Source: a virus
Taxonomy: Duplodnaviria; Heunggongvirae; Uroviricota; Caudoviricetes
Direction: 5' to 3' (one strand)
Length of the DNA stretch: 16,278 nucleotides
IMG/VR virus record: IMGVR_UViG_2563366911_000006
Part shown: in pieces, positions 2,094 through 16,278 of the stretch
How the letters are laid out: each line of letters begins with the position of its first letter
Position numbering within the stretch: position 1 is the stretch's first letter
Made by a program: the position numbers and the translations under genes
Notes under the pieces: model-generated
The model's database searches: none
What the model was told of the DNA's origin: nothing
What the model saw: only the letters and a program-made list of their open reading frames with translations

Positions 2094-2205
2094 TGAAATA
2101 AGAAAAGTCACAGTGTTTTTTCTAAAACTCACACACACATCATTTCATTTGTTATTTAATGCCCCTATTACAAATCACAAACCAACAACAAAGGTAATGG
2201 GGCAT

Positions 2206-2424
2206 ATGAAAAACCAACCAATACTTCAAACCGCAATCCCTGCAACTGGCTATATCCGCCGCTATCGCCTGGCTGAATTGCTGGGTACCAGCTTATCAAC
2301 GCTCGATCGTTGGGTACGTAGCGGGAAGATGCCTAAGCCCATCAAACTGGGTGAGAAAAGCACTGCATTCGATGCGGTAGAGATTAATCGCTGGCTGGAA
2401 GAACGCCGAAACACATCAGCCTGA
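2206..2424 (+). CDS. alpA: AlpA-family (excisionase-like, MerR-type HTH) prophage regulatory protein
   Basis: 72-aa product with HTH core LAELLGTSLSTLDRWVRSGKMPKPIKLGEKSTAFDAVEINRWL, typical of AlpA/Xis-like proteins. Start is ambiguous (ATG 2197 or 2206; the ORF track starts at 2113 and is probably too long). Confidence 0.85.
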   Translation: MKNQPILQTAIPATGYIRRYRLAELLGTSLSTLDRWVRSGKMPKPIKLGEKSTAFDAVEINRWLEERRNTSA

Positions 2425-2503
2425 TAAAACAGCTACGGGATCAGGCGCCCCAGCTATCCACCAGCAAACAGCAATTAACCAGATTCGATAGCAGGAGTTT
2501 TTT

Positions 2504-3304
2504 ATGAAATTTCCAAAAACGCCCGTACAGGGGCAGGGCTTCGTTCGGCCTGAAAACCAGAATCTGCAAAATTTTGGTGAAATTATCCCGGTTATTTCCG
2601 GCGTTATTGGCGGGCGTGAAACCAATATTGTTAGTGCCAGAGCGTTGCATAAGGCGTTAGGTGTAGGGCGCGTTTTCCGTTCGTGGATCAAGGGGCGCAT
2701 TGAAGAATACGGCTTCACGGAAGGCGTGGATTATGAGGTTGTTGAATATTTGAGCCGACCCGATCCGGTGAGCGCAAAATCTCGCCAGCAAACAGCTCTT
2801 GAGTACATCATCACCGTGAACATGGCAAAAGAACTGGCGATGGTCGAACACACCGAACAGGGCCGTGCCGTTCGTCAGTACTTCATCAAATGCGAGGAGG
2901 AGCTACACAAGGTAGCGCCAGTGCGTTCCGCAGCGTTACGCCGGGAACTGAAAGCCCGTATCACCGTTGCCAGCTACTTTAAGCCGATGTGTGCCGCGCT
3001 GGAGGCGTACCGGGCTGAACTGGGTAAAAACACGTTCCAGCACCACTACACCACGGAAGCCAATATGCTGGCGCGTATCGTGCTGGGTGGCATGACTGCA
3101 AAACAGTGGGCACAGGCGAACGGCATTACAGGCGAACCACGCGACCACATGAGCACGTTGCAGCTTGAGCACCTTTCTTACCTTGAGCAGAGCAATATCA
3201 CGCTGATTGAGTTAGGCCTGGACTACCACCAGCGGAAAGCTGAATTAATTCGTCTTTCGCAGCGTTGGTTAGCCCGTCGCATGGAGGAAAACAGCCATGT
3301 GTAA
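2504..3304 (+). CDS. Phage antirepressor-like protein (AntA/Rha-type N-terminal domain)
   Basis: 266 aa, AGGAG Shine-Dalgarno 7 nt upstream. N-terminal segment ARALHKALGVGRVFRSWIKGRIEEYGFTEGVDYEV resembles the AntA/Rha antirepressor DNA-binding domain. C-terminal half not assigned. Confidence 0.75.
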   Translation: MKFPKTPVQGQGFVRPENQNLQNFGEIIPVISGVIGGRETNIVSARALHKALGVGRVFRSWIKGRIEEYGFTEGVDYEVVEYLSRPDPVSAKSRQQTALEYIITVNMAKELAMVEHTEQGRAVRQYFIKCEEELHKVAPVRSAALRRELKARITVASYFKPMCAALEAYRAELGKNTFQHHYTTEANMLARIVLGGMTAKQWAQANGITGEPRDHMSTLQLEHLSYLEQSNITLIELGLDYHQRKAELIRLSQRWLARRMEENSHV

Positions 3305-3976
3305 CGCTCTGACCGTTACAAAAAGAGAAAGCGCCCCGTTGCCGGAGCGCCTTTGTGAACGAATAGCCTACTGCGCCATATTGCTTACTGTCTACGAGGC
3401 AGATTATAGCGTTGTGGTCGCACAGAGTGAAGGCGCTGATCACCGTTACTACAGCACGCCAGAAATGCAGAATATTTTGCTGCAAAATGTCGTTGGTCAC
3501 GCTGTCCGGAAAGCAAAAAATTTTGCTGGTGGCGCGACTGATGCGATTTTGTCAGGTCGCAAGGTGATGATCAATCTGATGTCTAATTTCGTTCTGGATA
3601 AAACAAAGGCGACCGCAGAGGGCCACCAGTGGGAAAGCTACACACTTGAACACATCGCCAACAATGCCAGATTTGCGGCTGGTGGGCAATGTGATCAGTG
3701 TGCTGGCTTGCTGGTGGGCTATTCCTGCTCTTTAACATTGCCATGCCGCGATGTTTTCCAGGTATGCGACCCCATTTTTGTGCGCCTGTACTCTTTAAGG
3801 AATTTCTCAAGGATAAACGCACAGGGCGCGAATCTGTCTGACTCATATTCGTACGCTATCTTTCTGCGCTGTCTTTTCCGTGCCGGTGATGGTGTATTGG
3901 TCGATTCTTTGTTGGTCATTCTGTGTACCTGTAAAGCAATGCGCCGGAGTTCCTCACACCACGGCGATGATAGTTA

Positions 3977-4282
3977 TTATTCTGATTCTTTGGCCTTGCG
4001 GCGCTGGAGTTCTTCACGTGCGACGGTGACGAGCTGCCCGATCTCCTCGACAGCTTTGACTCCGATTTTTTCCACCTGCGCCAGTGCATTGAGCGAAGAA
4101 ACCAGGGGATTTTCTCCGCTTCCTTCTGCCTGGCGGCGGGCGATCTCACCACGCATGGCGGTTACTATGAATCCGGCGTTGCTTTCGCCGTCCAGTTTTA
4201 CGGATTCCATGCCTTCAAAAGCATCATGTGGGATACGAATTGAAATCTGTTTTGATTTGTCGTTGATAGTGTTTTTTGCCAT
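3977..4282 (-). CDS. Putative ribbon-helix-helix DNA-binding regulator
   Basis: 101 aa from ATG at 4282 (minus strand) with AGGAGA Shine-Dalgarno. N-terminus KQISIRIPHDAFEGMESVKL...FIVTAMRGEIARRQ fits a beta-strand/helix/helix RHH fold. Divergent from the rightward operon. The opposite-strand frame here reads as Ser/Arg-rich junk. Confidence 0.7.
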   Translation of the reverse strand: MAKNTINDKSKQISIRIPHDAFEGMESVKLDGESNAGFIVTAMRGEIARRQAEGSGENPLVSSLNALAQVEKIGVKAVEEIGQLVTVAREELQRRKAKESE

Positions 4283-4469
4283 GTGCATTCTCCTAAACAA
4301 AAGATGTGATTCAGTATACACAAAAAAGAATCACAAAAAATACTTGACCTGTGATTCAGTTAAATTTAATTTAAATCACACCTCAGTAAGAGGATATAAA
4401 CGACAACGCCCCGAACTGTTTGCGGCAGTAGCGGGGCGTCTAACCAAACCGTTAAATGAGGTAACGATT
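4283..4469. promoter_or_regulatory. Divergent control region with operator-like repeats and a leader hairpin
   Basis: Two 11-bp direct repeats TGTGATTCAGT (4305-4315, 4350-4360), each with an inverted partner GAATCACA/AATCACA (4328-4335, 4374-4380). Candidate rightward promoter TTGACC (4345-4350) with a TAATTT-type -10. Candidate leftward -10 TATACT (minus strand, 4313-4318). GC hairpin ACGCCCCG-N18-CGGGGCGT (4406-4439) in the operon leader. Confidence 0.5.
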
Positions 4470-4835
4470 ATGGCTGGGGCACAGCATACCCAAACTCACC
4501 CTAAATTTATATACACCTTCCTTGCGGTGCACCGTGATTGCATGGCTGACGGTAAAAACACTGTTCATGTAGCCGCCGATACGCTGGTTGATGCCTGCGA
4601 GATGCTCAATGACATGGGCTATATCTCGGCAACATGGAAAGGGCGCGAAGAAAACACGTTGTTTATTCAGAAATGCGAAAACAATTTTATCTGGCGTTTT
4701 ATCGCCCTGAGTACGGCACAACCGCGCGTGATTCACATCGAGGCCACCAGCGAACAGGAAGCACGCCAGCAATCTCCTGATGGCTGCGTGATGGTATTCG
4801 CTGCCCGTATTCGCCAGGAGGTGGAGCATGTGTAA
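4470..4835 (+). CDS. Hypothetical satellite-operon protein (possibly Icd-like)
   Basis: 121 aa, GAGGT Shine-Dalgarno 8 nt upstream of ATG 4470. It is the only protein-like part of the 512-aa ORF-track frame. Family assignment is from memory and uncertain. Confidence 0.65.
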   Translation: MAGAQHTQTHPKFIYTFLAVHRDCMADGKNTVHVAADTLVDACEMLNDMGYISATWKGREENTLFIQKCENNFIWRFIALSTAQPRVIHIEATSEQEARQQSPDGCVMVFAARIRQEVEHV

Positions 4836-5052
4836 TGCAACATGGCCTGATGCAGCGGTAGACGCTATCAAAACGCTGATGGATTCACTTATTGAGATTT
4901 CTGCTATCGCTGGTGTGGCGCATAAACACGCAGCCAGAGAATCAGAATGCATCTCCCATTATTTAGCATTTGTGCAGCTGAAAGCCGATCAGGCACTGGA
5001 TAAGGCCGGAAAAATTATCATGGCTGATGTACAGGAGGTGCACCATGCATAA
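4828..5052 (+). CDS. Hypothetical small protein
   Basis: 74 aa. Start overlaps upstream stop (ATGTGTAA), consistent with translational coupling. Confidence 0.5.
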   Translation: MCNATWPDAAVDAIKTLMDSLIEISAIAGVAHKHAARESECISHYLAFVQLKADQALDKAGKIIMADVQEVHHA

Positions 5053-5410
5053 CCTGTCAATTTCTGACCTTAACAGCATTCAGTTTGACGAGATATTTTC
5101 CGGGCAGCTACTGGTTAACGTGGAGAATGGACGCGTGGTAAGTAATTATCACCTGCCGGATGGTGCAATTGCCGGAAGCGTTGAAGCATTGCTGGAACTG
5201 GCGGAACGTGCGCGACTGATTAAGCCGTCAACGTGCCATCACGATGATGATCTGCATTTTACCGGGTGTATGGTGAGTCACTACGAAAACGGCGTTGAAG
5301 TATCCTGCGAACGTCTGCGTGATGATTGCTGTTTCGGCACACTGCCGGAATTTATCGAATTGCTGACCAGTTGCGGTTATCAGGTCATTCAGGGGGGTAA
5401 ACATGCGTGA
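5045..5410 (+). CDS. Hypothetical protein
   Basis: 121 aa from ATG 5045 with GGAGG Shine-Dalgarno (5033-5037). Overlaps upstream stop (ATGCATAA). Confidence 0.6.
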   Translation: MHNLSISDLNSIQFDEIFSGQLLVNVENGRVVSNYHLPDGAIAGSVEALLELAERARLIKPSTCHHDDDLHFTGCMVSHYENGVEVSCERLRDDCCFGTLPEFIELLTSCGYQVIQGGKHA

Positions 5411-5636
5411 TGATCGTTTTAATTCCCTGAAACAGGAGTTTGATGGCGCACCGGAAGATACATCGGGCGCATTGTTGAGCATTGCTGACATGATGAAAGC
5501 TGCATATTTTCTTATCAATACCAGGGGCTACAAGTCAGAGGGTGAAATGATTCTTAGTATTGCGTCGGACTATGCTGAATATGTGGCAGAGACGCGTTAC
5601 AGAAGAAAATCTCTGGAGGATGTAAGCCATGCATAA
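5403..5636 (+). CDS. Hypothetical small protein
   Basis: 77 aa. ATGCGTGA start/stop overlap with upstream gene. Confidence 0.55.
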   Translation: MRDDRFNSLKQEFDGAPEDTSGALLSIADMMKAAYFLINTRGYKSEGEMILSIASDYAEYVAETRYRRKSLEDVSHA

Positions 5637-5829
5637 TCATGAAGCGCATGTACCCGTAGTGCTTAATGTGCCAGATGATTTCACCGGACGCGTGCTGGTT
5701 TACCTTGATAAAGAAAAAGTGAAATCACAATGCCGACTGAAAAGTAATGAGATTGTGGGTTCTCCTGAATTTTTTTCTGAACTCTGTATTCGTGCAGAAA
5801 TAAAACCGGAACTGCTGACAGGAAAATAA
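5629..5829 (+). CDS. Hypothetical small protein
   Basis: 66 aa. ATGCATAA start/stop overlap with upstream gene. Confidence 0.5.
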   Translation: MHNHEAHVPVVLNVPDDFTGRVLVYLDKEKVKSQCRLKSNEIVGSPEFFSELCIRAEIKPELLTGK

Positions 5830-5833
5830 AACC

Positions 5834-6124
5834 ATGAAAAGGAAAAATTCTGGCTTTACTGCCAGCGGTCTCTCTCGGCCTGAAATCAGACACGGAGATA
5901 TTTACCGCGACACCAGACGTGGGGGACGAGTGGTTATTCGTCACGTTACGCCAGGCAATATCACCTACCGCCGTGAGGCTTACGAATATGACTGCGTAAT
6001 GCCGCGCCGTCAGTTTGAGCGTGATTTTATTCTGGTGGAAAACAAACAACAGGCAGTGGCGAGACGTGCAGCCACGAATATTAAAAAAATCCGGGCAATG
6101 TTGGTTGCGGGAGGTAAGAAGTGA
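5834..6124 (+). CDS. Hypothetical small basic protein
   Basis: 96 aa, starts 4 nt after the previous stop. Its stop overlaps the GTG start of the primase (GTGA). Confidence 0.6.
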   Translation: MKRKNSGFTASGLSRPEIRHGDIYRDTRRGGRVVIRHVTPGNITYRREAYEYDCVMPRRQFERDFILVENKQQAVARRAATNIKKIRAMLVAGGKK

Positions 6125-7926
6125 AAAACGCACCGAATTTAAAATATCAGCCGAAGGATAAATTCACCGAGGTAATCATTTTTGCCGGGACGGATGCTTA
6201 CGCCCATGCTCAACACTGGATTGAAAGCGAAGGACGAAAACACGGCGATAACGTGCCTCCTGTTTACCTGGGGCCAAAGCAACTGGCAGACCTGGCGAAT
6301 ATCCGCATTGTCGACGATGAACGCCGCTTTGCGCGTGTCTATCTCGCGGGGGAGATAGAGCCAATCCAGATCAATGCTATTGCTGAAAAGCTGGCGCTGG
6401 CTGGTGTACAGGACGCGAAATTATACAAAGGTATCACCGACCGGGAGCCGGAAAACTGGCGCGACTACCTGCAACGGATCCGCGAACAGGCAGAGAGTGG
6501 GGAAGTTTCAGCGATGAAATTAGCCACAAAAAATATTGACCTATCTAGGCCAGCACTAAATCAGATGGGAGCCAGCCAGAGAGGGGAAGTGTTACTTGAA
6601 TATTATGGAAGAGCACTGGCTATAAATGATGATTCTGATGTAGTTCACCATTACAACGGAATTGTCTGGGTGCCTGTATCTGATAAGGAACTCCAGCGGT
6701 CTATGGCGAAGATTTTTATTGATGCTGGAATCAGTTATTCGCAAAACGCCATTAAATTTGCCGTAGACACAATGAAATTGAGCCTGCCTGTTATGGGCGG
6801 GGCAGACAGGAATCTTATTGGATTCAGTAACGGGGTATTTGATACCCGGACGGGAAATTTTCGGGAGCATAACAAAAATGACTGGTTGTTAAATGCCAGT
6901 GAATTACCGTTCAGCCCACCAGCAGAGGGGGAAACGCTGGCAACACATGCGCCGAATTTCTGGAAGTGGCTGCGTCGTTCGGTGGCAGATAATGATCGTA
7001 AAGCTGATCGCGTACTGGCGGCATTATTCATGGTGCTGGCGAACCGGTACGACTGGCAGTTATTCCTTGAGGTAACAGGCCCAGGCGGAAGCGGTAAAAG
7101 TGTGATGGCTGAGATTTGTACCATGCTGGCGGGTAAGGCAAACACAGTATCGGCAAGCATGAAGGCTCTGGAAGACGCAAGGGAACGCGCGTTAGTAGTT
7201 GGCTTTTCGCTGATTATCATGCCGGATATGACTCGCTACGCTGGCGATGGTGCAGGAATTAAGGCAATTACTGGCGGCGACAAGGTGGCAATTGATCCGA
7301 AACATAAAGCCCCCTACTCCACACGTATTCCGGCAGTAGTGCTTGCGGTAAACAATAACGCCATGTCATTCAGTGACCGAAGCGGGGGGATCTCGCGTCG
7401 TAGGGTGATATTTAATTTCTCTGAGGTCGTACCGGAGAACGAACGCGATCCCATGCTGGCGGAAAAGATAGAAGGCGAACTGGCGGTAGTGATTCGCCAT
7501 TTGCTAACACGATTTACCGACCAGGACGAAGCTAAAAGACTACTTTATGAGCAGCAAAAATCAGAAGAAGCGCTGTTGATAAAGCGCGAAGGTGATTCAC
7601 TGGTGGACTTTTGCGGCTATCTGATGTCGTTGGTTAAATGTGAAGGAATGATGGTGGGCAATGCGGAAATAGTGCCATTTAGCCCGAGGCGATACCTGTA
7701 TCATGCTTATTTAGCCTATATGTCAGCGCATGGCCTGGGAAAACCAGTATCACTGACACGCTTTGGTACTGATATGCCAGGAGCTATGGCGGAATACGGA
7801 AAGGAGTATAAGCGGGCTAAATGCACTAAAGGCCCGGATAAAGGGCGAGTGATAACAAATGTTCTGTTAGATGATGATGCTGATGGCTGGTTGCCAGCAG
7901 CTACAGGGATTAACGACAGAACATAA
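6121..7926 (+). CDS. Replication primase/helicase, P4 alpha-type C-terminal family (P-loop NTPase)
   Basis: 601 aa, GTG start with GGAGG Shine-Dalgarno. Walker A motif TGPGGSGKS near aa 316 (about nt 7066-7092). Overall resemblance to the P4-family primase C-terminal/helicase region. Followed directly by iterons. Confidence 0.88.
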   Translation: MKNAPNLKYQPKDKFTEVIIFAGTDAYAHAQHWIESEGRKHGDNVPPVYLGPKQLADLANIRIVDDERRFARVYLAGEIEPIQINAIAEKLALAGVQDAKLYKGITDREPENWRDYLQRIREQAESGEVSAMKLATKNIDLSRPALNQMGASQRGEVLLEYYGRALAINDDSDVVHHYNGIVWVPVSDKELQRSMAKIFIDAGISYSQNAIKFAVDTMKLSLPVMGGADRNLIGFSNGVFDTRTGNFREHNKNDWLLNASELPFSPPAEGETLATHAPNFWKWLRRSVADNDRKADRVLAALFMVLANRYDWQLFLEVTGPGGSGKSVMAEICTMLAGKANTVSASMKALEDARERALVVGFSLIIMPDMTRYAGDGAGIKAITGGDKVAIDPKHKAPYSTRIPAVVLAVNNNAMSFSDRSGGISRRRVIFNFSEVVPENERDPMLAEKIEGELAVVIRHLLTRFTDQDEAKRLLYEQQKSEEALLIKREGDSLVDFCGYLMSLVKCEGMMVGNAEIVPFSPRRYLYHAYLAYMSAHGLGKPVSLTRFGTDMPGAMAEYGKEYKRAKCTKGPDKGRVITNVLLDDDADGWLPAATGINDRT

Positions 7927-7953
7927 TACGAAATTTATAAGCTGAAACGTAAA

Positions 7954-8289
7954 GGTAGACGGTTGGTAGACAGATTCACTTAACCCTCTACCAACCATCT
8001 ACCAATTAATATTTTGAATTATAAAGATATTTTCAATGTAGTAGAGAGGTAGACAGTTATTTCTATATTCCTAAACCACGGGGGGTATATAAAAAACAGA
8101 TAGTTAAGGGGGCATTTTTTAAATTTCTCTTTTAACTGTCTACACTGTCTACCATTTAGTAAAAATCATTAATTATCAATGTATTAATGCGGTAGACCGT
8201 TGGTAGACAGTTTGCAGATTGTTTTTTTGTTATGTGTTAATAACATTAAATAAATCAATCAATTATATCGGTAGACAGTTGGTAGACAG
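7954..8289. repeat. Iteron array, putative satellite replication origin
   Basis: Repeated GGTAGAC(N)GTTGGTAGACAG units in both orientations (7954-7973, inverted 7987-8002, 8041-8056, inverted 8136-8153, 8191-8210, 8270-8289) separated by AT-rich DNA. No ORF of 60 aa or more. Immediately 3' of the primase/helicase gene. Confidence 0.7.
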
Positions 8290-8301
8290 TTGTAACGATG
8301 G

Positions 8302-8310
8302 GGCAAAGCA
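8302..8310. repeat. IS10 target-site duplication, left copy (GGCAAAGCA)
   Basis: 9-bp sequence identical to 9640-9648, directly flanking the IS10 ends. Confidence 0.9.
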
Positions 8311-8356
8311 CTGATGAATCCCCTAATGATTTTGGTAAAAATCATTAAGTTAAGGT

Positions 8357-8425
8357 GGATACACATCTTGTCATATGATCAAATGGTTTCGCGAAAAATC
8401 AATAATCAGACAACAAGATGTGCGA
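8357..8425 (-). ncRNA. IS10 RNA-OUT antisense RNA (position inferred)
   Basis: Placed by offset from the IS10 outside end using textbook IS10 organisation. Imperfect inverted repeat CATCTTGTC (8364-8372) / GACAACAAGATG (8409-8420) fits the RNA-OUT stem overlapping the transposase start. Confidence 0.45.
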
Positions 8426-9626
8426 ACTCGATATTTTACACGACTCTCTTTACCAATTCTGCCCCGAATTACACTTAAAACGACTCAACAGCTTAACGTT
8501 GGCTTGCCACGCATTACTTGACTGTAAAACTCTCACTCTTACCGAACTTGGCCGTAACCTGCCAACCAAAGCGAGAACAAAACATAACATCAAACGAATC
8601 GACCGATTGTTAGGTAATCGTCACCTCCACAAAGAGCGACTCGCTGTATACCGTTGGCATGCTAGCTTTATCTGTTCGGGCAATACGATGCCCATTGTAC
8701 TTGTTGACTGGTCTGATATTCGTGAGCAAAAACGACTTATGGTATTGCGAGCTTCAGTCGCACTACACGGTCGTTCTGTTACTCTTTATGAGAAAGCGTT
8801 CCCGCTTTCAGAGCAATGTTCAAAGAAAGCTCATGACCAATTTCTAGCCGACCTTGCGAGCATTCTACCGAGTAACACCACACCGCTCATTGTCAGTGAT
8901 GCTGGCTTTAAAGTGCCATGGTATAAATCCGTTGAGAAGCTGGGTTGGTACTGGTTAAGTCGAGTAAGAGGAAAAGTACAATATGCAGACCTAGGAGCGG
9001 AAAACTGGAAACCTATCAGCAACTTACATGATATGTCATCTAGTCACTCAAAGACTTTAGGCTATAAGAGGCTGACTAAAAGCAATCCAATCTCATGCCA
9101 AATTCTATTGTATAAATCTCGCTCTAAAGGCCGAAAAAATCAGCGCTCGACACGGACTCATTGTCACCACCCGTCACCTAAAATCTACTCAGCGTCGGCA
9201 AAGGAGCCATGGATTCTAGCAACTAACTTACCTGTTGAAATTCGAACACCCAAACAACTTGTTAATATCTATTCGAAGCGAATGCAGATTGAAGAAACCT
9301 TCCGAGACTTGAAAAGTCCTGCCTACGGACTAGGCCTACGCCATAGCCGAACGAGCAGCTCAGAGCGTTTTGATATCATGCTGCTAATCGCCCTGATGCT
9401 TCAACTAACATGTTGGCTTGCGGGCGTTCATGCTCAGAAACAAGGTTGGGACAAGCACTTCCAGGCTAACACAGTCAGAAATCGAAACGTACTCTCAACA
9501 GTTCGCTTAGGCATGGAAGTTTTGCGGCATTCTGGCTACACAATAACAAGGGAAGACTCACTCGTGGCTGCAACCCTGCTTACTCAAAATCTATTCACAC
9601 ATGGTTACGTTTTGGGGAAATTATGA
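8418..9626 (+). CDS. IS10 transposase
   Basis: 402-aa ORF MCELDILHDSLYQFCPELHLKRLNSLTLACHALLDCKTLTLTELGRNLPTKARTKHNIKRIDRLLGN... recognised as the IS10/Tn10 transposase. Full length, intact frame. Confidence 0.95.
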   Translation: MCELDILHDSLYQFCPELHLKRLNSLTLACHALLDCKTLTLTELGRNLPTKARTKHNIKRIDRLLGNRHLHKERLAVYRWHASFICSGNTMPIVLVDWSDIREQKRLMVLRASVALHGRSVTLYEKAFPLSEQCSKKAHDQFLADLASILPSNTTPLIVSDAGFKVPWYKSVEKLGWYWLSRVRGKVQYADLGAENWKPISNLHDMSSSHSKTLGYKRLTKSNPISCQILLYKSRSKGRKNQRSTRTHCHHPSPKIYSASAKEPWILATNLPVEIRTPKQLVNIYSKRMQIEETFRDLKSPAYGLGLRHSRTSSSERFDIMLLIALMLQLTCWLAGVHAQKQGWDKHFQANTVRNRNVLSTVRLGMEVLRHSGYTITREDSLVAATLLTQNLFTHGYVLGKL

Positions 9627-9639
9627 GGGGATCTCTCAG

Positions 9640-9648
9640 GGCAAAGCA
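9640..9648. repeat. IS10 target-site duplication, right copy (GGCAAAGCA)
   Basis: Identical to 8302-8310. Its last base is the A of the ATG of the next gene. Confidence 0.9.
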
Positions 9649-10178
9649 TGACTAAGCTGACCATTAACAGAAAACCAAAAGGTATTTACGGCACGCCGCA
9701 GAAAACGACGCAGGCGGCACAGGAGCAGGATAAAACCACATCGGCGCATAAAGTGATGCCCGGTAACCAGAAAGCGCAGCAGAAGCCTACAGGGGCGACA
9801 CCGTGGCGGCATATGACCAAACGCCAGCGCAAAAACCGCAGGCGCGTTAACCGCCTCACTGAGTTGTGGCCTGACTTATTCAGCCGGGAAGCACTGAAGC
9901 CGCTTAAGGTGGGGATATTCGACGACCTGATGCAGGATCTCGCCGCCAGGGGGCTGGCATTCGGGCCAGGGGCATTGCGTGCGACGCTGGCATCTTATGC
10001 GCAGTGTCCGCGCTATTACCGCGCCTTAATGGCTGGTGGGGTACGCTACGACCTGAAAGGCCAGCCGTGCGGCGAGGTGACACCACAGGAACAACAGGAC
10101 GCAGAAACGCGGCTGGTGGCGCTGAATGAGAAGCGCAAACGCCAGTGCCGGGCAGCAAAGGAGACAATAGGCGCATGA
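9648..10178 (+). CDS. ProQ/FinO-domain protein (RNA chaperone-like)
   Basis: 176 aa, GC-rich. Segment PLKVGIFDDLMQDL...LRATLASYAQCPRYYRALMAGGVRYDLKGQPCGEVTPQEQ closely parallels the conserved ProQ/FinO core (PLKIGIF..DL...R.DL.G.PCGE). IS10 lies immediately upstream. Confidence 0.72.
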   Translation: MTKLTINRKPKGIYGTPQKTTQAAQEQDKTTSAHKVMPGNQKAQQKPTGATPWRHMTKRQRKNRRRVNRLTELWPDLFSREALKPLKVGIFDDLMQDLAARGLAFGPGALRATLASYAQCPRYYRALMAGGVRYDLKGQPCGEVTPQEQQDAETRLVALNEKRKRQCRAAKETIGA

Positions 10179-10462
10179 TTCACGACAGCAAAGCGGAAGC
10201 ACTGGAAGCGCGTGGTCTGTACCGGAGAGCGGCGGCGCGGTGGGCTGAGGTCATCATGCTGGCGAATGATGACAAGGCACGGGAACAGGCGGCAAAACGT
10301 CGCGCGGAATGTATCCACAAGGCAGCACGCCCACCAGCAAGGCAGGATAATTTCGGGGAGATGCGCGAAACCATCAGCCGGGCACATGCCGGGATGGGAT
10401 TACATCAGCCCAATGGTGAGGCATTCAGGAAATACCAAAAAAAGAACAATTGTAGTCAGTAA
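10175..10462 (+). CDS. PerC-family-like small transcriptional regulator
   Basis: 95 aa from ATG 10175, overlapping the upstream stop (ATGA). N-terminal AEALEARGLYRRAAARWAEV recalls the PerC family. Assignment from memory, moderate certainty. Confidence 0.6.
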   Translation: MIHDSKAEALEARGLYRRAAARWAEVIMLANDDKAREQAAKRRAECIHKAARPPARQDNFGEMRETISRAHAGMGLHQPNGEAFRKYQKKNNCSQ

Positions 10463-10596
10463 CAGAGGATGGGATTCTCTTGGTTTTTTGTTGATGCTTT
10501 CTGAGGAAATCTACTACGTTGCTGAGCAGATGAATATTCAATTGCATCTGGGTTCCTGATAAGATTAATCTGAATATTTTCATTTGGAATAGGGAT

Positions 10597-11739
10597 ATGA
10601 ATAAAACTTTAATTGCAACATTAGTCGGTATAGTAATGTTAACCGGATGTGGGCCAGAAGAGTTAACTCCAGAACAGAAACAGGAAGTAGCTGCTCTTAA
10701 AGCTGAACTGTCGCAAACGGAAGGTGAAATATCAGCAGCTAAGGAAGTTGACCAGCAGTTTTCTGGTGGGTTGATAAAAAATCTGACAACAGCAAGACTG
10801 GAAATATTAGGAACTAATAAAGCGCTTTTGGAACAGCGTATTAATGCTATTGAATCAGGTGCCAAAATTGATGTTGTTGTATCTGGAGTAAAACCTGATC
10901 CTGAGCTTGCGGCTTCAATTAAAACTGAAATTGACAGCTTAGATGCAAAAATCAACGAAGCCAAAGCTGATGCTCGTCAGTATAGTGGTGGTCTGATAAA
11001 GGTACTAAAATTATCTACTGTTGCCACTGAAGAGCAGACCATGGCAATGTTGCAGCAAAAGTACCTCACAGCCAAGTATGGCCTCGCTGAAGTTAAGCTG
11101 GCATCAGTACAAGCTAATGACGCAAAAAACAGTACTGAAACGGAAGTAACAGCCAAAAATTCCCAAGAGCAACTTCCTTTACTCCCGCCAGCGGATGGTC
11201 CGTTTGGCTTAGAAGCCGGTCTTACACAGAAAAACATCGAAGATATGATCGGTGCTAAGCTCAAGCCACTACCAGACAGTGTGAATCTGTATACTTCTGA
11301 TAAATTACCGAAGCAAAACGCAGATTTTGAAATGTATGGTTTGCTGATCTCCCCGAAAGCTGGTTTATGTCAAATACGGGCTTTAGGAAAAAATATTGAT
11401 ACTGATAGCTATGGATTGGCTCTTAAATCCAAGTTTGAAGAATTGAGTAATTCTTTAAGTTCTCTGTATGGAAAGGCTGATACTACAGACTTTTTGCTGG
11501 CTGGTTCAATTTGGAAAGATCCTCAGGACTGGATGAGGGGGCTAAACAAAAAAGAACGCTTCTTATCTGCCACATGGAAGGGAACAAAAGAAATACCATT
11601 AAAAAACAATATTGATACTATATCTATTGAGGCCAGAGCGAACAATTCCACTCAGGGATATGTCTATCTGCAGTACTCATTTACAAATGACGAAATTTGT
11701 CAGGCAGAAATTGAAGGGGCGAAAAAAAGTTCCCTTTAA
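10597..11739 (+). CDS. Lipoprotein with internal repeats, function unknown
   Basis: 380 aa. Signal peptide with lipobox LTGC (Cys18). Two copies of a Q(F/Y)SGGLIK motif about 70 aa apart in a coiled-coil-like N-terminal half. AT-rich. Followed by a strong terminator. Confidence 0.85.
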   Translation: MNKTLIATLVGIVMLTGCGPEELTPEQKQEVAALKAELSQTEGEISAAKEVDQQFSGGLIKNLTTARLEILGTNKALLEQRINAIESGAKIDVVVSGVKPDPELAASIKTEIDSLDAKINEAKADARQYSGGLIKVLKLSTVATEEQTMAMLQQKYLTAKYGLAEVKLASVQANDAKNSTETEVTAKNSQEQLPLLPPADGPFGLEAGLTQKNIEDMIGAKLKPLPDSVNLYTSDKLPKQNADFEMYGLLISPKAGLCQIRALGKNIDTDSYGLALKSKFEELSNSLSSLYGKADTTDFLLAGSIWKDPQDWMRGLNKKERFLSATWKGTKEIPLKNNIDTISIEARANNSTQGYVYLQYSFTNDEICQAEIEGAKKSSL

Positions 11740-11751
11740 ACAATCCGTGCA

Positions 11752-11778
11752 AAGCCCCTTAGTAAGGGGCTTTTATAT
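11752..11778 (+). terminator. Rho-independent terminator
   Basis: Perfect 9-bp stem AAGCCCCTT / AAGGGGCTT with 3-nt loop, followed by TTATATATT. Confidence 0.7.
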
Positions 11779-11803
11779 ATTAATGTTCAACGTGGGGGAT
11801 TAG

Positions 11804-12127
11804 ATGAAAGATAATCTAGCAAAACTAATTGAAAATACTTTAAAAGATATTCTATTAGCTAATGCTGCTCTAACATTCATTTTTGCAATACCAATGGCTA
11901 TTATCAGTAGGCATGGGATGGGCATCACAATCTGGTTTATAACTGTGCTCATTGCACCTGCTCTGTGTGCAGTAGGTGCATGGCTTGTATCTCGAACATC
12001 CGGCCATGCTGAGGAGTTCTTTCATCGTCGGTGGGCTAAGCGAATTTATGTTTTTTATACTCTTGCGGCTGCCGAGTTTTTGCTTGTGTACTCAATCGCG
12101 CAAATAATGAAAAATCTGATGAAATAA
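11804..12127 (+). CDS. Small integral membrane protein (about 3 TM helices)
   Basis: 107 aa, GGGGGA Shine-Dalgarno. Three hydrophobic stretches of about 20 aa (LANAALTFIFAIPMAIIS, ITIWFITVLIAPALCAVGAWLV, IYVFYTLAAAEFLLVYSIAQIM). AT-rich. Confidence 0.7.
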   Translation: MKDNLAKLIENTLKDILLANAALTFIFAIPMAIISRHGMGITIWFITVLIAPALCAVGAWLVSRTSGHAEEFFHRRWAKRIYVFYTLAAAEFLLVYSIAQIMKNLMK

Positions 12128-12395
12128 TTAACAAGTTATTATCATGGAGCTTGTGGCTGTTAACCTGCAGTGAGGCGACAATCGTGTATTTATAAAAACT
12201 TCCCCTTTTCACTCCCCGCTGCTTCTTCTGCTATTGCCTTTATGTTTGCATCTGCCATACCTTTGCAGAAAAATCAGAGCATTCAGTGCCGAAGGTTGGT
12301 TTATTGATGCTTTTCGTTTCATTTATTGCAATTGTCTCTGGTATCATTTCAATTTGTGCAATAATTGCAATTATTGTCATTCAGAAGGGATCATC

Positions 12396-12563
12396 ATGAA
12401 AAATCACGGAGTAAAGCCAGTTTTACTTTCCCGGAGGCAGATCGAAGCCCTGCAACGCATCCAGGACGAAGAGCGTCAGAAATCTGTGCTTGGTGTGGCA
12501 CCGTCGATTCATGTTATCGCTCGGCAACTGATGGATAAGGCACTTAAAGAGGTGAGACTGTGA
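12396..12563 (+). CDS. Small hypothetical protein (possible DNA-binding regulator or antitoxin-like)
   Basis: 55 aa from ATG 12396 with AAGGGA Shine-Dalgarno 5 nt upstream. Upstream region carries ATTGCAAT-type palindromic repeats. The ORF-track start (12234) is probably too far upstream. Confidence 0.55.
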   Translation: MKNHGVKPVLLSRRQIEALQRIQDEERQKSVLGVAPSIHVIARQLMDKALKEVRL

Positions 12564-12832
12564 AATTAAATATCAGAGTGGATAAACGCCAGCTATGGCA
12601 GAAAAAAGAGAACAGCGAGGCATTCAGGGCGTTGCTGGTGGAAAATCTTCAGCATCGGTTCAGTGGAGAGTTGCCTGATGCTCTAGGGAAGAAACTGGAA
12701 TCCCTGACGGTGGAAATTGGCGATTATGGCTTTGTTGATGTTGAAAGCACGACTGCCAACACAGAAATCGTAAAACAGGTCGTCAATGATGTAATGAAAA
12801 CCACGCTTAGCCAGCCATCCTGGCGCAACTGA
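12560..12832 (+). CDS. Small acidic hypothetical protein
   Basis: 90 aa. GTG start overlapping the upstream stop (GTGA), suggesting a coupled two-gene unit. Followed by a hairpin terminator. Confidence 0.55.
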   Translation: MKLNIRVDKRQLWQKKENSEAFRALLVENLQHRFSGELPDALGKKLESLTVEIGDYGFVDVESTTANTEIVKQVVNDVMKTTLSQPSWRN

Positions 12833-12838
12833 ATCAGT

Positions 12839-12862
12839 AAGGGGCGGTTATTGCCCCTTTCC
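12839..12862 (+). terminator. Putative rho-independent terminator
   Basis: Stem AAGGGGC / GCCCCTT with 7-nt loop followed by TTCCTCC. U-tract is weak. Confidence 0.5.
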
Positions 12863-12931
12863 TCCATACCCACAACGCATTCCCTTTCCGCATGAAATTA
12901 TTTTTTATCGTATATGCATGAGGTGAGCTAC

Positions 12932-13459
12932 ATGTTGATGAGTAAAGCCGAATACGCCAAATACAAAGGCGTAAGCCGCCAGACAGTTTACGACTGGCTC
13001 GAGAAAGGCGAAGTGGTCATGTCCGGTAAAAAAATTGATGTGGAGGCGACAGAGCAGCGGAACAGCCCACCGGCACAAGGGAAAGACACCGTTTCTGAAA
13101 TGTGGCCAGAAAGAACGCTGGAAATGACGTGGGGCGAGTTCTGGAAAGCAGTTAAGGCCAGAGACGGTAAAATTCCTTCGCCAGTAACGGACGATGACAT
13201 ACAGCAGCGTGTGCTGTATGCAGCCGGGGAATTAGGCTGGGAAGTGCACTTTCTTGATGATGGTGCTATCTGCCTTGAGGATGATGAAGGGCAGCATTAC
13301 TTTGAAAAATACAATTTGCGAGGTAATGCCAGGCTGGCAATTCGTATGCTGCGTTGCGAACTCTGCTATGTTGCAGGTGATTATCCCGATGAACTGGAAT
13401 CATGGAGTGAAGCCGGGCTAAACGCCCTGGCTGAATGGGAAAAATCAGACCATCAATGA
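12932..13459 (+). CDS. N-terminal HTH protein (possible small-terminase-like or packaging-redirection-like DNA-binding protein)
   Basis: 175 aa from ATG 12932 with GAGGTGA Shine-Dalgarno. N-terminus MSKAEYAKYKGVSRQTVYDWLEKGEV is an HTH of the type found at the N-terminus of small terminase / Nu1-like proteins. Acidic C-terminal domain. A repeat array lies immediately downstream. Confidence 0.65.
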   Translation: MLMSKAEYAKYKGVSRQTVYDWLEKGEVVMSGKKIDVEATEQRNSPPAQGKDTVSEMWPERTLEMTWGEFWKAVKARDGKIPSPVTDDDIQQRVLYAAGELGWEVHFLDDGAICLEDDEGQHYFEKYNLRGNARLAIRMLRCELCYVAGDYPDELESWSEAGLNALAEWEKSDHQ

Positions 13460-13464
13460 CATCA

Positions 13465-13733
13465 AAAAGTGTCAAGTTAAGCAGCTTGCCAGGTTGACAC
13501 TTTACACTCTGAACGCGAAAAAGTGTCAACCTCGCTAGAAGCCGCGCCATTACTGGCCTTGTACCATATTCACCACGTCAAAAAACCGAAAAAATCGCGA
13601 AAAGTGTCAAGTTGCCATGCTTAGAAATGCCAGGGGTGGTTAAGTTTTGTTAAGGTTTTTCGCGAAAAAGTGTCAAGTGTGTCAACCTGCGATGTTAAGG
13701 TTTGTTAAGGTCTTAAGCTGGAAAGTGTCAACC
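13465..13733. repeat. Array of AAAGTGTCAA-type repeats, putative protein-binding site cluster
   Basis: Seven copies of (CGCG)AAAAGTGTCAA(G/C): direct at 13465-13476, 13515-13532, 13597-13611, 13661-13677, 13676-13688 (variant), 13720-13733, and inverted at 13492-13503. Interleaved GTTAAGG(T) repeats (about 13640-13660, 13693-13712, 13741-13756). No ORF of 60 aa or more on the plus strand. Confidence 0.75.
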
Positions 13734-13763
13734 AGCCACCTAAGATTTCCTAAGGTGTAAATC

Positions 13764-13937
13764 ATGACCATCACCGAAGCCGATTTGCTGGAGATGATCC
13801 GCAGCATTGCCGGAATCAAACAACCTGCAAGAAAAATTAACAGGTGTTCAGCGCCTGTTTCCGTTGTGCTGCAACAGGAACGCCACCAGCAGGATGATGT
13901 GAGGCCGTATCAGTGGAAGAAACCGGACAGGCCGCGA
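13764..13937 (+). CDS. Small ORF (57 aa), possibly a gene remnant
   Basis: ATG 13764 with AAGGTG Shine-Dalgarno 7 nt upstream. First about 20 aa are protein-like (MTITEADLLEMIRSIAGIKQ), the remainder low-complexity. Below the ORF-track size cutoff. Confidence 0.3.
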
Positions 13938-13982
13938 CGGTGAGCGAGGCGTTACAGTAAGCCGATATTCAAGCCAAACATT

Positions 13983-14005
13983 AAGCCTACGGGCAAGGCT
14001 TTTTT
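13983..14005 (+). terminator. Putative rho-independent terminator
   Basis: Stem AAGCCT / AGGCTT with 7-nt loop followed by TTTTG. Confidence 0.5.
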
Positions 14006-14289
14006 GTAGCTGGTGGGCATGATGCCGATATAATAGCCCCTCCTACCAATTATCTGTGATTCCTATCTAACCTTCATCACGGACAACTAGAAAATCATTG
14101 TGGATAAATAAGGATCATAACGAATAAAGCATTTCATAGCAGAGCAACATACTGACTATTCAATACCCTGTTCAAACGTACAGGTATCAGTGTTATCAAC
14201 GTTTTAATAACCTTTCATGTTCTTTCCTACCACTTAAACTAGAGTAAAATGTGAAAAATTTATACCCATAAGTTTCATATGGAGGAACT

Positions 14290-16278
14290 GTGTTCCTAAT
14301 ATCTGACCTTAGCGACTTGCGTGCACTTTCGGAATCCGCAGAGCTAGAGTTCAAGCTAGCTCAAGGGAAAGACGGACAAGGTAAATTACCTGATGATTTC
14401 TGGCCAACCTATAGTGCTATGGCAAACTGCCGTGGTGGGTATGTGGTTTTAGGTATTAGAGAGAAAAAAGGGGAATTTTCCGTTGCGGGTATCTCAGATA
14501 TAAATACCGTTAAAAAGCAGCTTTTCGACCTCGTGAGCAACAAGAAAAAAGTTAACGTTAATCTTCTTACCAATAACTCTGTCCAAACAGTATCCTTACA
14601 GGGAAAGGATATTCTTGTCATTGAAATACCAATCGCACGACGAGAACAGAAACCTGTTTATTTGAATAATCAACCCATGTCAGAAACATGGTTTCGTATG
14701 CACGACGGTGATCATCGTTGTTCAGAAGAACAAGTTCGTCGCATGATGGCCGAACAGGTTGAAGAAAGCCGCGACAACCGTATCGTACAAAACTTCGACA
14801 TGAACGATATTAACCTAGAAAGCTTGTTGGCTTACAGAAATCTACTATCTGCTTCAAACCCGACACATCCAGCTCTCGAACTAGATAACTTTGCTTTCCT
14901 ACGAAGTATTGGGGGATATAGAAAAGACCGGCAAACAGGTTTGGAAGGCATGACCTTAGCTGGCATTCTCATGTTTGGAACATGGGAAGCGATACAAGAT
15001 GTAGCCCCAAATTATTTTGTGGATTACCAAGAACGCCCTGAAGCAAGAACTGAAAGAAGATGGGTAGATAGACTATGTCCCGATGGGACTTGGTCAGGTA
15101 ACGTGTTTGACTTTTACAGACGAACCTATCGAAAACTAATTGCTGACTTAAAAGTCCCTTTTGAGCTTAAAGAAGGTATCCGACAGGACGATACTCAGAT
15201 ACACACAGCATTGCGTGAAGCGCTGGTAAATACCTTAGTTCATGCCGATTATACTGGACGAATCTCCATCATGGTTGTGAAACGACCAGATCTATTTGGC
15301 TTCCGTAATCCAGGTTTGATGCGCGTGCCACCAGAACAAGCAATCAAAGGATATGAAAGCGATTGTCGAAACCGACTGATGCATCAAATGTTTTTAATTA
15401 TTGGTGCTGGTGAACGATCAGGCTCAGGGATCCCTAAAATATTTAGTGGCTGGAAATGGGCTAACTGGCGTATGCCAAGGCTATATGAAAAAACAGAACC
15501 AGAACAAACACTTTTGGAGCTATCTATTGGCAACCTCGTATCAGAAGAAATTGCCAATCTTCTCCATACAAAATTTGGCGACAAAGTAGACCATCTCAGT
15601 GAGCTTGAGCGCAGTATTGTTATAACTGCAGCCGTAGAAAAGTGGATTGACCATGAACGGGCTTGTCAACTAACTAGCCTTCACTCTCGTGAGGTAACTT
15701 TAGCCTTACCCCGCCTTGTAAGCGGCGGATTCTTAGTCCCTCATGGTGAGAAGAGGAATAAATCATATACATTACCGGGGCAGGATCTTCCATCTCCAGA
15801 GGAAGTTTTTGGTGTAAATCCGTTATCAACAGACAACTCATTCGCAAACGAAGCTCAAATCATCACGGATAGCGATAATTTGATCACGGATAACGAAGAA
15901 TTGATCACGGATAACGAAAAAGAACGAGATGCTTTAGGTCGTTTTATAACCGAGAAACTACCTTTTCCTTATGTGGATAACCTTGAGTGCCTTTCACCAA
16001 CCTTAAGGCAACGGTTAGAAGACATATCTGCATTAGCCAGAGAAAAGAAACGACTTTCCAACGAAACCATGGACGAAATCATACTTAAGCTTTGCTCAGG
16101 CCATTATATGCCGCTTAGTGTTATTGCAAAGTTAATGGCCCGAACACCACAGAACCTACGAGAAAAACAGCTCGTTCCATTAGTAAGATCCGGAAAAATA
16201 AGACTGGCATTTCCTCATGCGAGAAGACACAAACGACAGGGATATATTTCTTGTGAACAAGTACAAGTTAACAACTAA
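14290..16278 (+). CDS. Schlafen/AlbA_2-domain protein with GHKL-like ATPase-type region (COG2865-like) and extended C-terminus
   Basis: 662 aa, GTG start with GGAGG upstream. N-terminal SESAELEFK signature; LAGILMFG segment; LREALVNTLVHADY...FRNPG...ERSGSGIPKIF matching the HATPase_c_4-like core of COG2865 proteins; C-terminal HTH-like segments. Family call from memory of motifs. Ends exactly at the window end. Confidence 0.8.
   Translation: MFLISDLSDLRALSESAELEFKLAQGKDGQGKLPDDFWPTYSAMANCRGGYVVLGIREKKGEFSVAGISDINTVKKQLFDLVSNKKKVNVNLLTNNSVQTVSLQGKDILVIEIPIARREQKPVYLNNQPMSETWFRMHDGDHRCSEEQVRRMMAEQVEESRDNRIVQNFDMNDINLESLLAYRNLLSASNPTHPALELDNFAFLRSIGGYRKDRQTGLEGMTLAGILMFGTWEAIQDVAPNYFVDYQERPEARTERRWVDRLCPDGTWSGNVFDFYRRTYRKLIADLKVPFELKEGIRQDDTQIHTALREALVNTLVHADYTGRISIMVVKRPDLFGFRNPGLMRVPPEQAIKGYESDCRNRLMHQMFLIIGAGERSGSGIPKIFSGWKWANWRMPRLYEKTEPEQTLLELSIGNLVSEEIANLLHTKFGDKVDHLSELERSIVITAAVEKWIDHERACQLTSLHSREVTLALPRLVSGGFLVPHGEKRNKSYTLPGQDLPSPEEVFGVNPLSTDNSFANEAQIITDSDNLITDNEELITDNEKERDALGRFITEKLPFPYVDNLECLSPTLRQRLEDISALAREKKRLSNETMDEIILKLCSGHYMPLSVIAKLMARTPQNLREKQLVPLVRSGKIRLAFPHARRHKRQGYISCEQVQVNN

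Follow-up and report, generated by a model that had tools for sequence, protein, structure and literature searches.

A simple, probably recent IS10 insertion at the ProQ/FinO start codon of a PICI-type satellite island of E. coli

A complete IS10 stands between the replication origin and the ProQ/FinO-domain gene of a phage satellite island of E. coli. With a probability of roughly 85%, an active IS10 copy entered an island of PICI type by simple insertion, probably not long ago. The event is already known in kind, being an ordinary, well-understood mutation and not a new element type, and we propose that it belongs with the many degenerative changes seen in the island family and is no functional device. 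Here 'the window' refers to the whole stretch of DNA analysed, 16,278 nucleotides long, in which the insertion and its parts are placed as follows.

8302..8310: left copy of the 9-bp target-site duplication, GGCAAAGCA
8311..9639, plus strand: complete IS10 (ISVsa5-type isoform), exactly 1329 bp, outside end left and inside end right
8311..8333, plus strand: outside-end terminal repeat (transposase binding end)
8356..8425, minus strand: RNA-OUT antisense RNA gene
8418..9626, plus strand: intact IS10 transposase, 402 aa, with its ATG at IS nt 108
9617..9639, plus strand: inside-end terminal repeat, with GATC inside
9640..9648: right copy of the duplication, GGCAAAGCA, its last base being the A of the ProQ/FinO ATG

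The sequence-only reading had called a full 1329-bp IS10 with recognisable ends and an intact 402-aa transposase, and alignment bears this out. The window copy equals IS10-Right of Tn10 (R100, NC_002134) in length at 1329 bp and is 99.40% identical to it, with 8 differences, while identity to IS10-Left of Tn10 on R100 is 99.32%. The tetD-side copy on R100 was taken to be IS10-Right, following the published Tn10 map. Nucleotides 1-202 of the element are those of R100 IS10-Right and nucleotides 1301-1329 are those of both R100 copies; the ends form an imperfect inverted repeat, CTGATGAATCCCCTAATGATTTT / CTGAGAGATCCCCTCATAATTTC. Seven of the eight substitutions relative to IS10-Right, at nt 903-1300, carry IS10-Left alleles, and thus the window element is a mosaic of an IS10-Right 5′ part and an IS10-Left 3′ part. 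Its 3′ third and its transposase match IS10-Left of R100, the weaker of the two Tn10 copies.

The element agrees with IS10-Right in its pIN/RNA-OUT region, in starting the transposase at nt 108 and in having GATC at IS nt 67 (pIN) and 1320 (inside end), the only two occurrences in the window copy. These are Dam sites, and their regulatory role in IS10 is established. RNA-OUT matches Rfam RF00240 over model positions 1-70 of 70, with 98.8 bits (gathering score 41). Running from 8425 to 8356 on the minus strand, it overlaps the transposase 5′ end and is directed from pOUT to the outside end and the island origin, which agrees with the earlier claim that the pOUT side faces the origin. The transposase matches Pfam DDE_Tnp_1 (E 1.5e-24) and NCBIfam transpos_IS4_2 of the IS4 family (402 bits; cut-off 152). 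It is identical to the IS10-Right transposase at 398 of 402 residues, the changes being V266I, L381S, A389T and A398V.

The same isoform is found widely. Six E. coli plasmid copies are 100% identical to the window IS10 over 1329 bp, and the exact transposase protein, named 'IS10 transposase' in UniRef, is on at least 1000 contigs. The element is like the free IS10 or 'ISVsa5' copies of Enterobacteriaceae, the insertion site being the sole difference. PGAP labels the free copies 'IS4-like element ISVsa5 family transposase'; the label cannot separate the element from IS10, because PGAP gives it to R100's own IS10 copies as well, and the possibility that an 'ISVsa5' is not IS10 was ruled out on this ground and by the 99.4% identity to IS10-Right. 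The window copy is assumed to be highly active from the wide spread of the isoform, and identical copies at many sites suggest that it can transpose.

Unlike the IS10-Right of Tn10, the window IS10 is solitary and lies outside Tn10. Neither further IS10 sequence nor tet or jem cargo was found in the 16-kb window. Tn10 or another composite transposon was ruled out, with one IS10 copy in the window and the duplication directly flanking it.

The perfect direct repeat around the element, from which a simple transposition had been read, was found at both junctions, and its right copy ends at position 9648 on the A of the ATG, as described before. GGCAAAGCA occurs only these two times in the window when both strands are scanned, and the chance of a 9-nt identity at two fixed positions is ~4e-6. 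A 9-bp duplication at a GCTNAGC-like target is again a likeness to IS10-Right; GCTNAGC is the hotspot consensus for IS10 (PMC4574204, PMC2744996). GGCAAAGCA scores 5/6 against this core (fuller form of the site, NGCTNAGCN). Among the 14,932 positions that remain in the window without the IS, only 57 reach or exceed this score (top 0.4%), and the IS10 site is the only such target in the intergenic region between origin and ProQ/FinO gene. The landing position is thus explained by the fit of the target to IS10's own site preference. The element sits 19 bp past the last origin iteron and abuts the ProQ/FinO start codon, and it is oriented like the island genes.

When the IS and one repeat were removed in silico, the rejoined sequence was identical to E. 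coli K56-43-un at 1600 of 1600 bp. A single GGCAAAGCA is present in each of six IS-free relatives, as expected of an empty site. The left IS10 junction was found in none of 5,426 complete E. coli genomes and is absent from the GTDB species-representative genomes. A query made of half island and half IS matched 2,037 of the 5,426 genomes, mostly via its IS10 half and at up to 45 places per genome. The exact ProQ/FinO protein is on 222 contigs; in the 25 of these that were read, the IS10 junction was not found, and their three gene arrangements are all uninterrupted. With a junction unique among the collections searched and an IS 100% identical to circulating copies, the insertion is probably recent, and the earlier suggestion to that effect is plausible.

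The element that received the insertion is a phage satellite of E. coli, mosaic and of PICI type. Its main features are as follows.

1-1254: tyrosine integrase, with Arm-DNA-bind_3, Phage_int_M and Phage_integrase matches
2233-2424: AlpA-family regulator (Phage_AlpA, E 5e-9)
6121..7926, plus strand: island primase/helicase (pri-rep), 601 aa, intact (Pfam D5_N, DUF5906, Pox_D5)
7954..8291: island replication origin, with ~12 GGTAGAC-type iterons in both orientations around an AT-rich core (32% GC)
9648..10178, plus strand: ProQ/FinO-domain gene, 176 aa, intact, first gene 3′ of the island origin
10175..10462, plus strand: PerC/PchE-like gene, 95 aa (Pfam PF06069, 109 bits)

The gene order is integrase, AlpA, RgdR-like protein, P4/D5-type primase, iteron origin, ProQ/FinO-domain gene and PerC/PchE-like gene, and the credible island ORFs are all on the plus strand of a window that measures 14.9 kb without the IS. 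Two marks of a PICI are found, integrase being followed by AlpA and primase directly by an iteron origin. A primase followed by an origin with two iteron sets flanking an AT-rich core is the Gram-negative PICI organisation (PMC6092414), with which the island agrees. Against the NCBIfam model of the P4-family primase C-terminal domain, the primase scores 95.8 bits (E 2.1e-27), below the cut-off of 108.7 bits. The origin is untouched by IS10 and its last iteron ends at 8291, so that the iterons are intact as had been stated. Of ~13 distinct proteins that were profile-scanned, none was recognised as a capsid or terminase protein and several had no match at all, and a PADLOC scan of the island cargo genes gave weak matches only.

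The island resembles the Gram-negative PICIs EcCICFT073, O157 O-island 51/Sp7 and EcCIMP1 in its one-strand order of int, alpA, small genes, RgdR-like gene, primase, iteron origin and PerC/Pch-like gene (PMC6092414, PMC3378721, PMC11773190). Compared with the Sp7 proteins of O157 Sakai, the RgdR-like protein is 49% identical, the PerC/PchE-like protein 51% identical to PchE, and the primase N-terminus 49% identical. Unlike Sp7, which has ECs1586 and an SSB-like gene at the first post-origin position, the island has a ProQ/FinO-domain gene there. EcCIMP1 is a characterised PICI with a PerC-like repressor; identity of the island with EcCIMP1 was ruled out, as there is no nucleotide similarity.

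The protein of the first post-origin gene scores 82.6 bits against Pfam PF04352 (ProQ; cut-off 27) over residues 64-166. It is below the cut-offs of the NCBIfam FinO model (57.8 bits vs 136) and the NCBIfam ProQ model (54.3 bits vs 127), and equivalence to FinO or to chromosomal ProQ was accordingly rejected, leaving it a domain relative only. The ATG of the PerC-like gene overlaps the ProQ/FinO stop codon (ATGA).

The translation signals of ProQ/FinO are little changed by the insertion. The duplication mostly keeps the Shine-Dalgarno sequence (GGGG becomes AGGG) at unchanged spacing, and the predicted accessibility of the initiation region is 0.57 with the IS versus 0.56 without it. On this prediction, burial of the ribosome-binding site in RNA structure was rejected. 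The PGAP start of the CDS in IS-free relatives is the same ATG, and with this start the insertion lies in the 5′ leader, as previously described. An in-frame ATG lies 12 nt upstream (MGQS-M...), and some records annotate the resulting 180-aa form; if that ATG were used, IS10 would interrupt codons 4/5 and not a leader.

When 7800-9800 was scanned for consensus promoters and terminators, neither a convincing native ProQ/FinO promoter nor a terminator 3′ of the primase was found. The number of hits was not above that in shuffled controls, and the sole plus-strand consensus match in the origin was weak. The ProQ/FinO gene may be read through from the primase operon. Of the earlier claim that IS10 separates the gene from its native promoter, the location 5′ of the gene holds; the separation itself is something we infer, because the scan located no such promoter.

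Outward promoters have been reported at both ends of IS10 (PMC4574204). Two papers, as secondary sources, place the inside-end promoters pIII and OUTIIp, which reportedly read outward, at nt 1000-1230 of IS10 (PMC4574204, PMC11481808), and in this interval the window IS10 is the same as IS10-Right. These promoters had been overlooked by the sequence-only reading. Read-through from pOUT is ~10% of lacUV5 (PMC9330008).

From these elements a course of events can be proposed. The IS10 transposase would have cut GGCAAAGCA with a stagger of 9 bp, and a donor IS10 excised elsewhere in the same cell would have been pasted in by non-replicative cut-and-paste, the site being chosen by the sequence preference of the transposase and not by selection. 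Transcripts from the primase side would then have to pass through 1.3 kb of IS10 that is poorly translated, and most would be terminated. The insertion is thus probably polar and probably uncouples ProQ/FinO and PerC from upstream island transcription. Through this polarity, expression driven by the helper phage and AlpA would be lost for ProQ/FinO, for the PerC-like gene that is translationally coupled to it, and for the genes that follow. The two genes are probably left with the weak inside-end promoters of IS10 only, and the remaining transcription would be weak and constitutive, from pIN read-through and pIII/OUTIIp, with the translation signals of ProQ/FinO largely kept. Given the inside-end promoters and the mostly kept Shine-Dalgarno sequence, the downstream genes have probably not been silenced but re-wired, with weak constitutive expression as the outcome. 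On the other side, a fraction of pOUT transcripts may run antisense into the origin.

IS10 insertions upstream of otsBA (PMC2744996) and of cat on pSU8 (PMC4574204) are comparable, in that IS10 entered a 9-bp target close to its consensus and came to lie between a gene and the transcription signals upstream of it. There too the ORF is intact and the native control is replaced by IS-borne promoters, as would be the case here. In the otsBA case, unlike here, the gene is read from pOUT and selection was for insertions that activate it (PMC2744996), whereas in the window the gene faces the inside end, which offers only weak promoters (pIII/OUTIIp), and pOUT faces away. In the cat case, selection for higher expression was shown, and the orientation of the IS is that suggested by the figure legend of the paper (PMC4574204). 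No evidence of selection was seen for the window insertion.

Relatives of the island carry further insertions. At least four other independent IS events are found in the same ~1.7-kb stretch of primase end, origin, ProQ and PerC among ~82-98 module-carrying genomes. In one allele, IS1A has a duplication, AAGCATGAC, that overlaps the same ProQ/FinO ATG, 5 bp from the IS10 site. This allele is present in four E. coli (98193, 2024CK-00475, 126 and CAVP766) with identical junctions in 4 of 4, and is probably one inherited event. Like the IS10 allele, it affects the same island module, has the same transposase orientation and leaves the ProQ/FinO ORF intact; unlike it, it involves another IS family and mechanism, in an island variant that is ~95% identical. 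The position of IS1A only 5 bp away in another lineage is a coincidence not fully explained by pure target preference.

Elsewhere among the relatives, an IS3 lies directly after the primase stop codon in one, another IS3 is inserted within perC in a relative island, and an IS629-like element accompanies a 1.35-kb deletion by which half the origin, ProQ/FinO and PerC are lost. Frameshifts are found across relatives in the primase, ProQ/FinO and PerC; of the four IS1A genomes, PerC was read in 98193 only, and there it is frameshifted. The IS events and frameshifts fit a general decay of the island family.

An alternative is that insertions at the junction of origin and ProQ/FinO are favoured as selected re-wiring or domestication. 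They could cut the post-origin module (ProQ/FinO, the PerC-type regulator and downstream genes) from helper-phage induction, or let weak constitutive IS promoters drive the module, so that the host benefits or the satellite is crippled. The four or more other independent IS events in the same ~1.7-kb stretch speak for it, as do the survival of the ProQ/FinO ORF and most of the ribosome-binding site after both the IS10 and the IS1 insertion, and the outward inside-end promoters described in PMC4574204 and PMC11481808. However, the location needs no selection, because the intergenic region has no other strong target for IS10. Moreover, the strong outward promoter pOUT points away from ProQ/FinO, the IS10 event is in no other genome searched, a single IS1 event stands behind 4 identical junctions, other island genes have frameshifts as neutral decay of a cryptic element predicts, and the events are too few for a statistical case. 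We therefore regard selected re-wiring as unlikely, and give similarly low odds to the broader proposal that the boundary is a recurrent landing site where IS insertions (IS10, IS1 and the nearby IS3 and IS629-like elements) are kept by selection. If that were true, the post-origin module, with an RNA-chaperone-like protein and a PerC/Pch-type virulence regulator, would be disconnected from helper-phage induction and placed under weak constitutive IS promoters, and IS insertions would be a route for hosts to domesticate satellite regulators.

That IS10 jumped during culture or propagation, giving an allele absent from the natural population, is quite improbable. IS10 is well known for jumping into DNA that is being cloned or cultured (PMC4574204, PMC4021028), and the junction is unique among all collections searched. 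However, the sequence would be the same for a laboratory or a recent natural event, wild E. coli often carry IS10-type elements, to judge from the genomes matched mostly through the IS10 half of the junction query (2,037/5,426), and the transposition with target duplication is genuine in either case. We see hardly any chance that the structure arose from faulty assembly, or that it belongs to a larger composite transposon of the Tn10 kind instead of being a solitary IS: although IS copies are often misassembled, the perfect 9-bp duplication lies directly around a single copy, the flanks rejoin to known sequence at 100%, and the 16-kb window holds neither another IS10 nor tet or jem cargo.

The simple insertion of IS10 is of small significance beyond annotation: this island copy carries a fresh IS10, and its post-origin module is probably uncoupled from replication and induction. 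Users of the strain for work on the satellite or on PerC/Pch-type regulation would be dealing with a disrupted module. Together, K56-43-un (IS-free), 98193 (IS1) and the IS10 allele make up a natural allelic series, which could be used to study the role of the uncharacterised PICI ProQ/FinO-domain protein and the transcription of the post-origin genes.

The insertion and the gene behind it are laid out as follows.

8302-8310: left duplication copy, GGCAAAGCA (scripted coordinates)
8311-9639: IS10 element, 1329 bp, the stretch between the repeats
8425->8356, minus strand: full-length RNA-OUT (Rfam 98.8 bits, gathering score 41)
8418-9626: transposase ORF, 402 aa, with its ATG at IS nt 108
9640-9648: right duplication copy, GGCAAAGCA (scripted coordinates)
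9648-10178: ProQ/FinO ORF, 176 aa, whose first base, the A of the ATG, also closes the right repeat

The sequence-only reading had described a complete IS10 with an intact 402-aa transposase, a perfect 9-bp direct repeat, and a right copy ending on the A of the FinO-like ATG, and all its structural statements were borne out by reading window 7900-10300 and by scripted coordinates. Only these two copies of GGCAAAGCA occur within the window when both strands are checked, and no second IS10 fragment was found in it. The outer bases of the element (start CTGATGAATCCCCTAATGATTTTGGTAAAAATCATTAAG, end ...CGTTTTGGGGAAATTATGAGGGGATCTCTCAG) form an imperfect terminal inverted repeat. The transposase is of DDE type (Pfam DDE_Tnp_1, E 1.5e-24) and scores 402 bits against the NCBIfam IS4-family equivalog (cut-off 152). 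Inside IS10, GATC occurs at nt 67 and nt 1320 only, which are the two Dam sites of the IS10 literature.

IS10 is among the best-studied bacterial insertion sequences. Two reference copies were located by their ends in Tn10 of plasmid R100 and compared base by base with the window element, which has the same length as both. It shows 8 differences (99.40% identity) from the tetD-side copy, which is IS10-Right on the published Tn10 map, and 9 differences (99.32% identity) from the other, IS10-Left. It is a mosaic, carrying IS10-Right alleles at nt 1-425 and IS10-Left alleles at nt 903-1300, plus one substitution of its own at nt 203. Its transposase differs from that of R100 IS10-Right at four residues, whereas the protein sequence is identical to that of R100 IS10-Left. 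The full element matches copies on six E. coli plasmids at 100%, and the exact transposase is present on at least 1000 contigs, labelled ‘IS10 transposase’ and ‘ISVsa5 family transposase’. The ISVsa5 label as a sign of a non-IS10 element was rejected, because PGAP gives it to R100's own copies too, so that it does not separate the window element from IS10. The element is correctly identified as a real IS10, with a normal mechanism and a normal target, the same as circulating copies.

For the empty site, IS10 and one repeat were removed and 1600 bp of rejoined sequence was searched against 5,426 complete E. coli genomes. As the sequence-only reading had expected of IS-free relatives, a single GGCAAAGCA is found, in the context ...GTAACGATGGGGCAAAGCATGACTAAG..., in all six IS-free loci read from related islands (L001, L002, L004, L007, L008 and L009). 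In K56-43-un (L001), 1600/1600 bases are identical, and PGAP starts the ProQ/FINO CDS at the same ATG. A left-junction query (500 bp of flank and 500 bp of IS) was fully covered in 0 of the 5,426 genomes, and a 35-nt left-junction pattern was not found in GTDB species representatives. Among 25 contigs read with the exact ProQ/FinO protein, there are three gene arrangements, each with an uninterrupted 383-nt primase-ProQ spacer. Because the junction is absent from the genomes, representatives and contigs searched, the insertion is private to the source genome. The private junction and the perfect duplication fit a recent event, natural or in culture, in line with the earlier suggestion of a probably recent transposition.

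The island encodes, as an array on one strand, an integrase, an AlpA-family regulator, an AntA-like protein, small genes, a DUF4222 protein, a primase-helicase, a spacer, a ProQ/FinO-domain protein and a PerC-family protein, the PerC ATG overlapping the ProQ/FinO stop codon.

1-1254: integrase
5834-6124, plus strand: DUF4222 protein, directly upstream of the primase
6121-7926: D5/P4-type primase-helicase
7954-8291: iteron region of the spacer (origin), ~12 GGTAGAC-type iterons in both orientations, 32% GC

Without the IS, the primase-ProQ/FinO spacer is AT-rich and 383-384 bp long. It has the same arrangement as Gram-negative PICI origins, in which two iteron sets flank an AT-rich core immediately 3′ of pri-rep (PMC6092414). 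Synteny equals that of O157 O-island 51/Sp7, whose primase is 49% identical over the first 140 residues of the window primase. The DUF4222 protein shares 49% identity with RgdR (ECs1581), which belongs to O-island 51 and regulates type III secretion (PMC3378721); in the window protein, the RGD motif reads RHGD. Identity between the PerC-like protein and PchE is 51%, and PerC-type genes are described as frequent PICI cargo (PMC6092414, PMC11773190). The island is mosaic, with ends (1-3574 and 12316-16278) 98.6-99.2% identical to the yicC-dinD island of ABU 83972 and a middle (2818-13502), holding the replication and post-origin part, 99.6-99.7% identical to the thrW-integrated island of K56-43-un. 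None of the complete genomes searched has this exact combination, and no nucleotide similarity to the characterised EcCIMP1 was found.

Some further features were noted along the island. The terminal cargo gene (14290-16278, plus strand) has Schlafen/AlbA_2 and HATPase_c_4 domains and weak PADLOC matches to pAgo-associated models (E 1.7e-8); K56-43-un has a GapS1 gene at the equivalent position, which suggests a variable slot for defence cargo. A 512-aa ORF of odd composition (3297-4835, plus strand) is probably spurious; PGAP does not call it in K56-43-un, where the annotation instead shows small YlcI/YnfO-like genes on the minus strand and a partial Icd-like gene, and window 3575-4687 is absent from ABU 83972. 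The 14-nt GTAAAAATCATTAA is found at 8159-8172 in the AT-rich core of the origin and at 8335-8348 (IS10 nt 25-38, the region of the IHF site in the outside end; BLAST E 0.067). This sharing may reflect chance or two IHF-like sites.

IS10 starts 19 bp after the last iteron, and thus the origin repeats are intact, as had been proposed. The strand of RNA-OUT points pOUT to the outside end and the origin, again in agreement with the sequence-only reading. Since some pOUT transcripts run on into flanking DNA, at ~10% of lacUV5 according to a review (PMC9330008, citing Simons et al. 1983), the outward antisense transcription proposed in the sequence-only reading, into the origin and the 3′ end of the primase, is a reasonable prediction.

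Between the primase and ProQ/FinO, no consensus promoter beat shuffled controls and no terminator was found, and transcription of Gram-negative PICIs is described as unidirectional (PMC6092414); native ProQ/FinO transcription is therefore probably, for the most part, read-through from upstream. With the insertion, such read-through would have 1.3 kb of IS10 to traverse. Insertions of Tn10/IS10 exert strong polarity, and transposase is translated inefficiently from transcripts originating outside IS10.

The opposite side of IS10, which faces ProQ/FinO, provides a possibility that had not been considered earlier. PMC4574204 describes outward promoters at both IS10 ends, and PMC11481808 places pIII and OUTIIp within IS10 nt 1000-1230, where the window element equals IS10-Right. 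The G-run of the ribosome-binding site survives in the duplication (CAGGGCAAAGCATG in place of the native TGGGGCAAAGCATG), and the initiation region is predicted to be as accessible as before (0.57 vs 0.56). With these outward promoters and the kept initiation region, the best reading is that ProQ/FinO would be uncoupled from induced island transcription and left with weak constitutive expression, rather than fully silenced.

An in-frame ATG at 8298-8300, four codons (12 nt) ahead of the ProQ/FinO start, would yield the 180-aa form annotated in some records; were it the true start, IS10 would interrupt codons 4/5. The transposase stop (9624-9626) lies 24 nt before the ProQ/FinO ATG and happens to share its frame.

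Other disruptions occur in relatives: among the ~82-98 complete genomes with this module, four independent IS events besides IS10 were found. Frameshifts are listed with them, by locus.

IS1A: L003 1293-2078 (98193), equal to window 8306-8310 plus 9649-9652
IS3: L002 ~905-2165 (J2), directly after the primase stop codon
IS3: L004 2008-3284 (2017-02-2CC), inside perC
IS629-like: L012 2172-3479 (APEC E19019), with a 1.35-kb deletion
Primase frameshift: L001 7610-9416 (K56-43-un)
ProQ/FinO frameshift: L011 10058-10575 (ABU 83972)
perC frameshift: L003 2602-2890 (98193)

The IS1A duplication, AAGCATGAC, likewise takes in the ProQ/FinO start codon, at a distance of 5 bp from the IS10 site. Its junctions are 100% identical in exactly four genomes (98193, 2024CK-00475, 126 and CAVP766), so it is probably a single event. 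The APEC E19019 deletion removes the right half of the origin, ProQ/FinO and PerC. There is a slight chance that selection favours disrupting the post-origin module, though the events are few. The target preference of the transposase is enough to account for the IS10 position: the duplicated 9-mer matches 5/6 specified positions of the hotspot core GCTNAGC (PMC4574204, PMC2744996). Only 57 of the 14,932 positions in the IS-free window reach 5 or 6, and in the stretch from the primase stop to the ProQ/FinO start the IS10 site is the sole one. The frameshifted primase, ProQ/FinO and PerC genes of relatives indicate ongoing decay of the island family, and the IS and frameshift pattern is consistent with relaxed selection acting on an element that is largely cryptic.

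The insertion is already known in kind, its sole special feature being its position in a PICI-type satellite, owing to which the IS10-bearing island is a potentially useful natural mutant.
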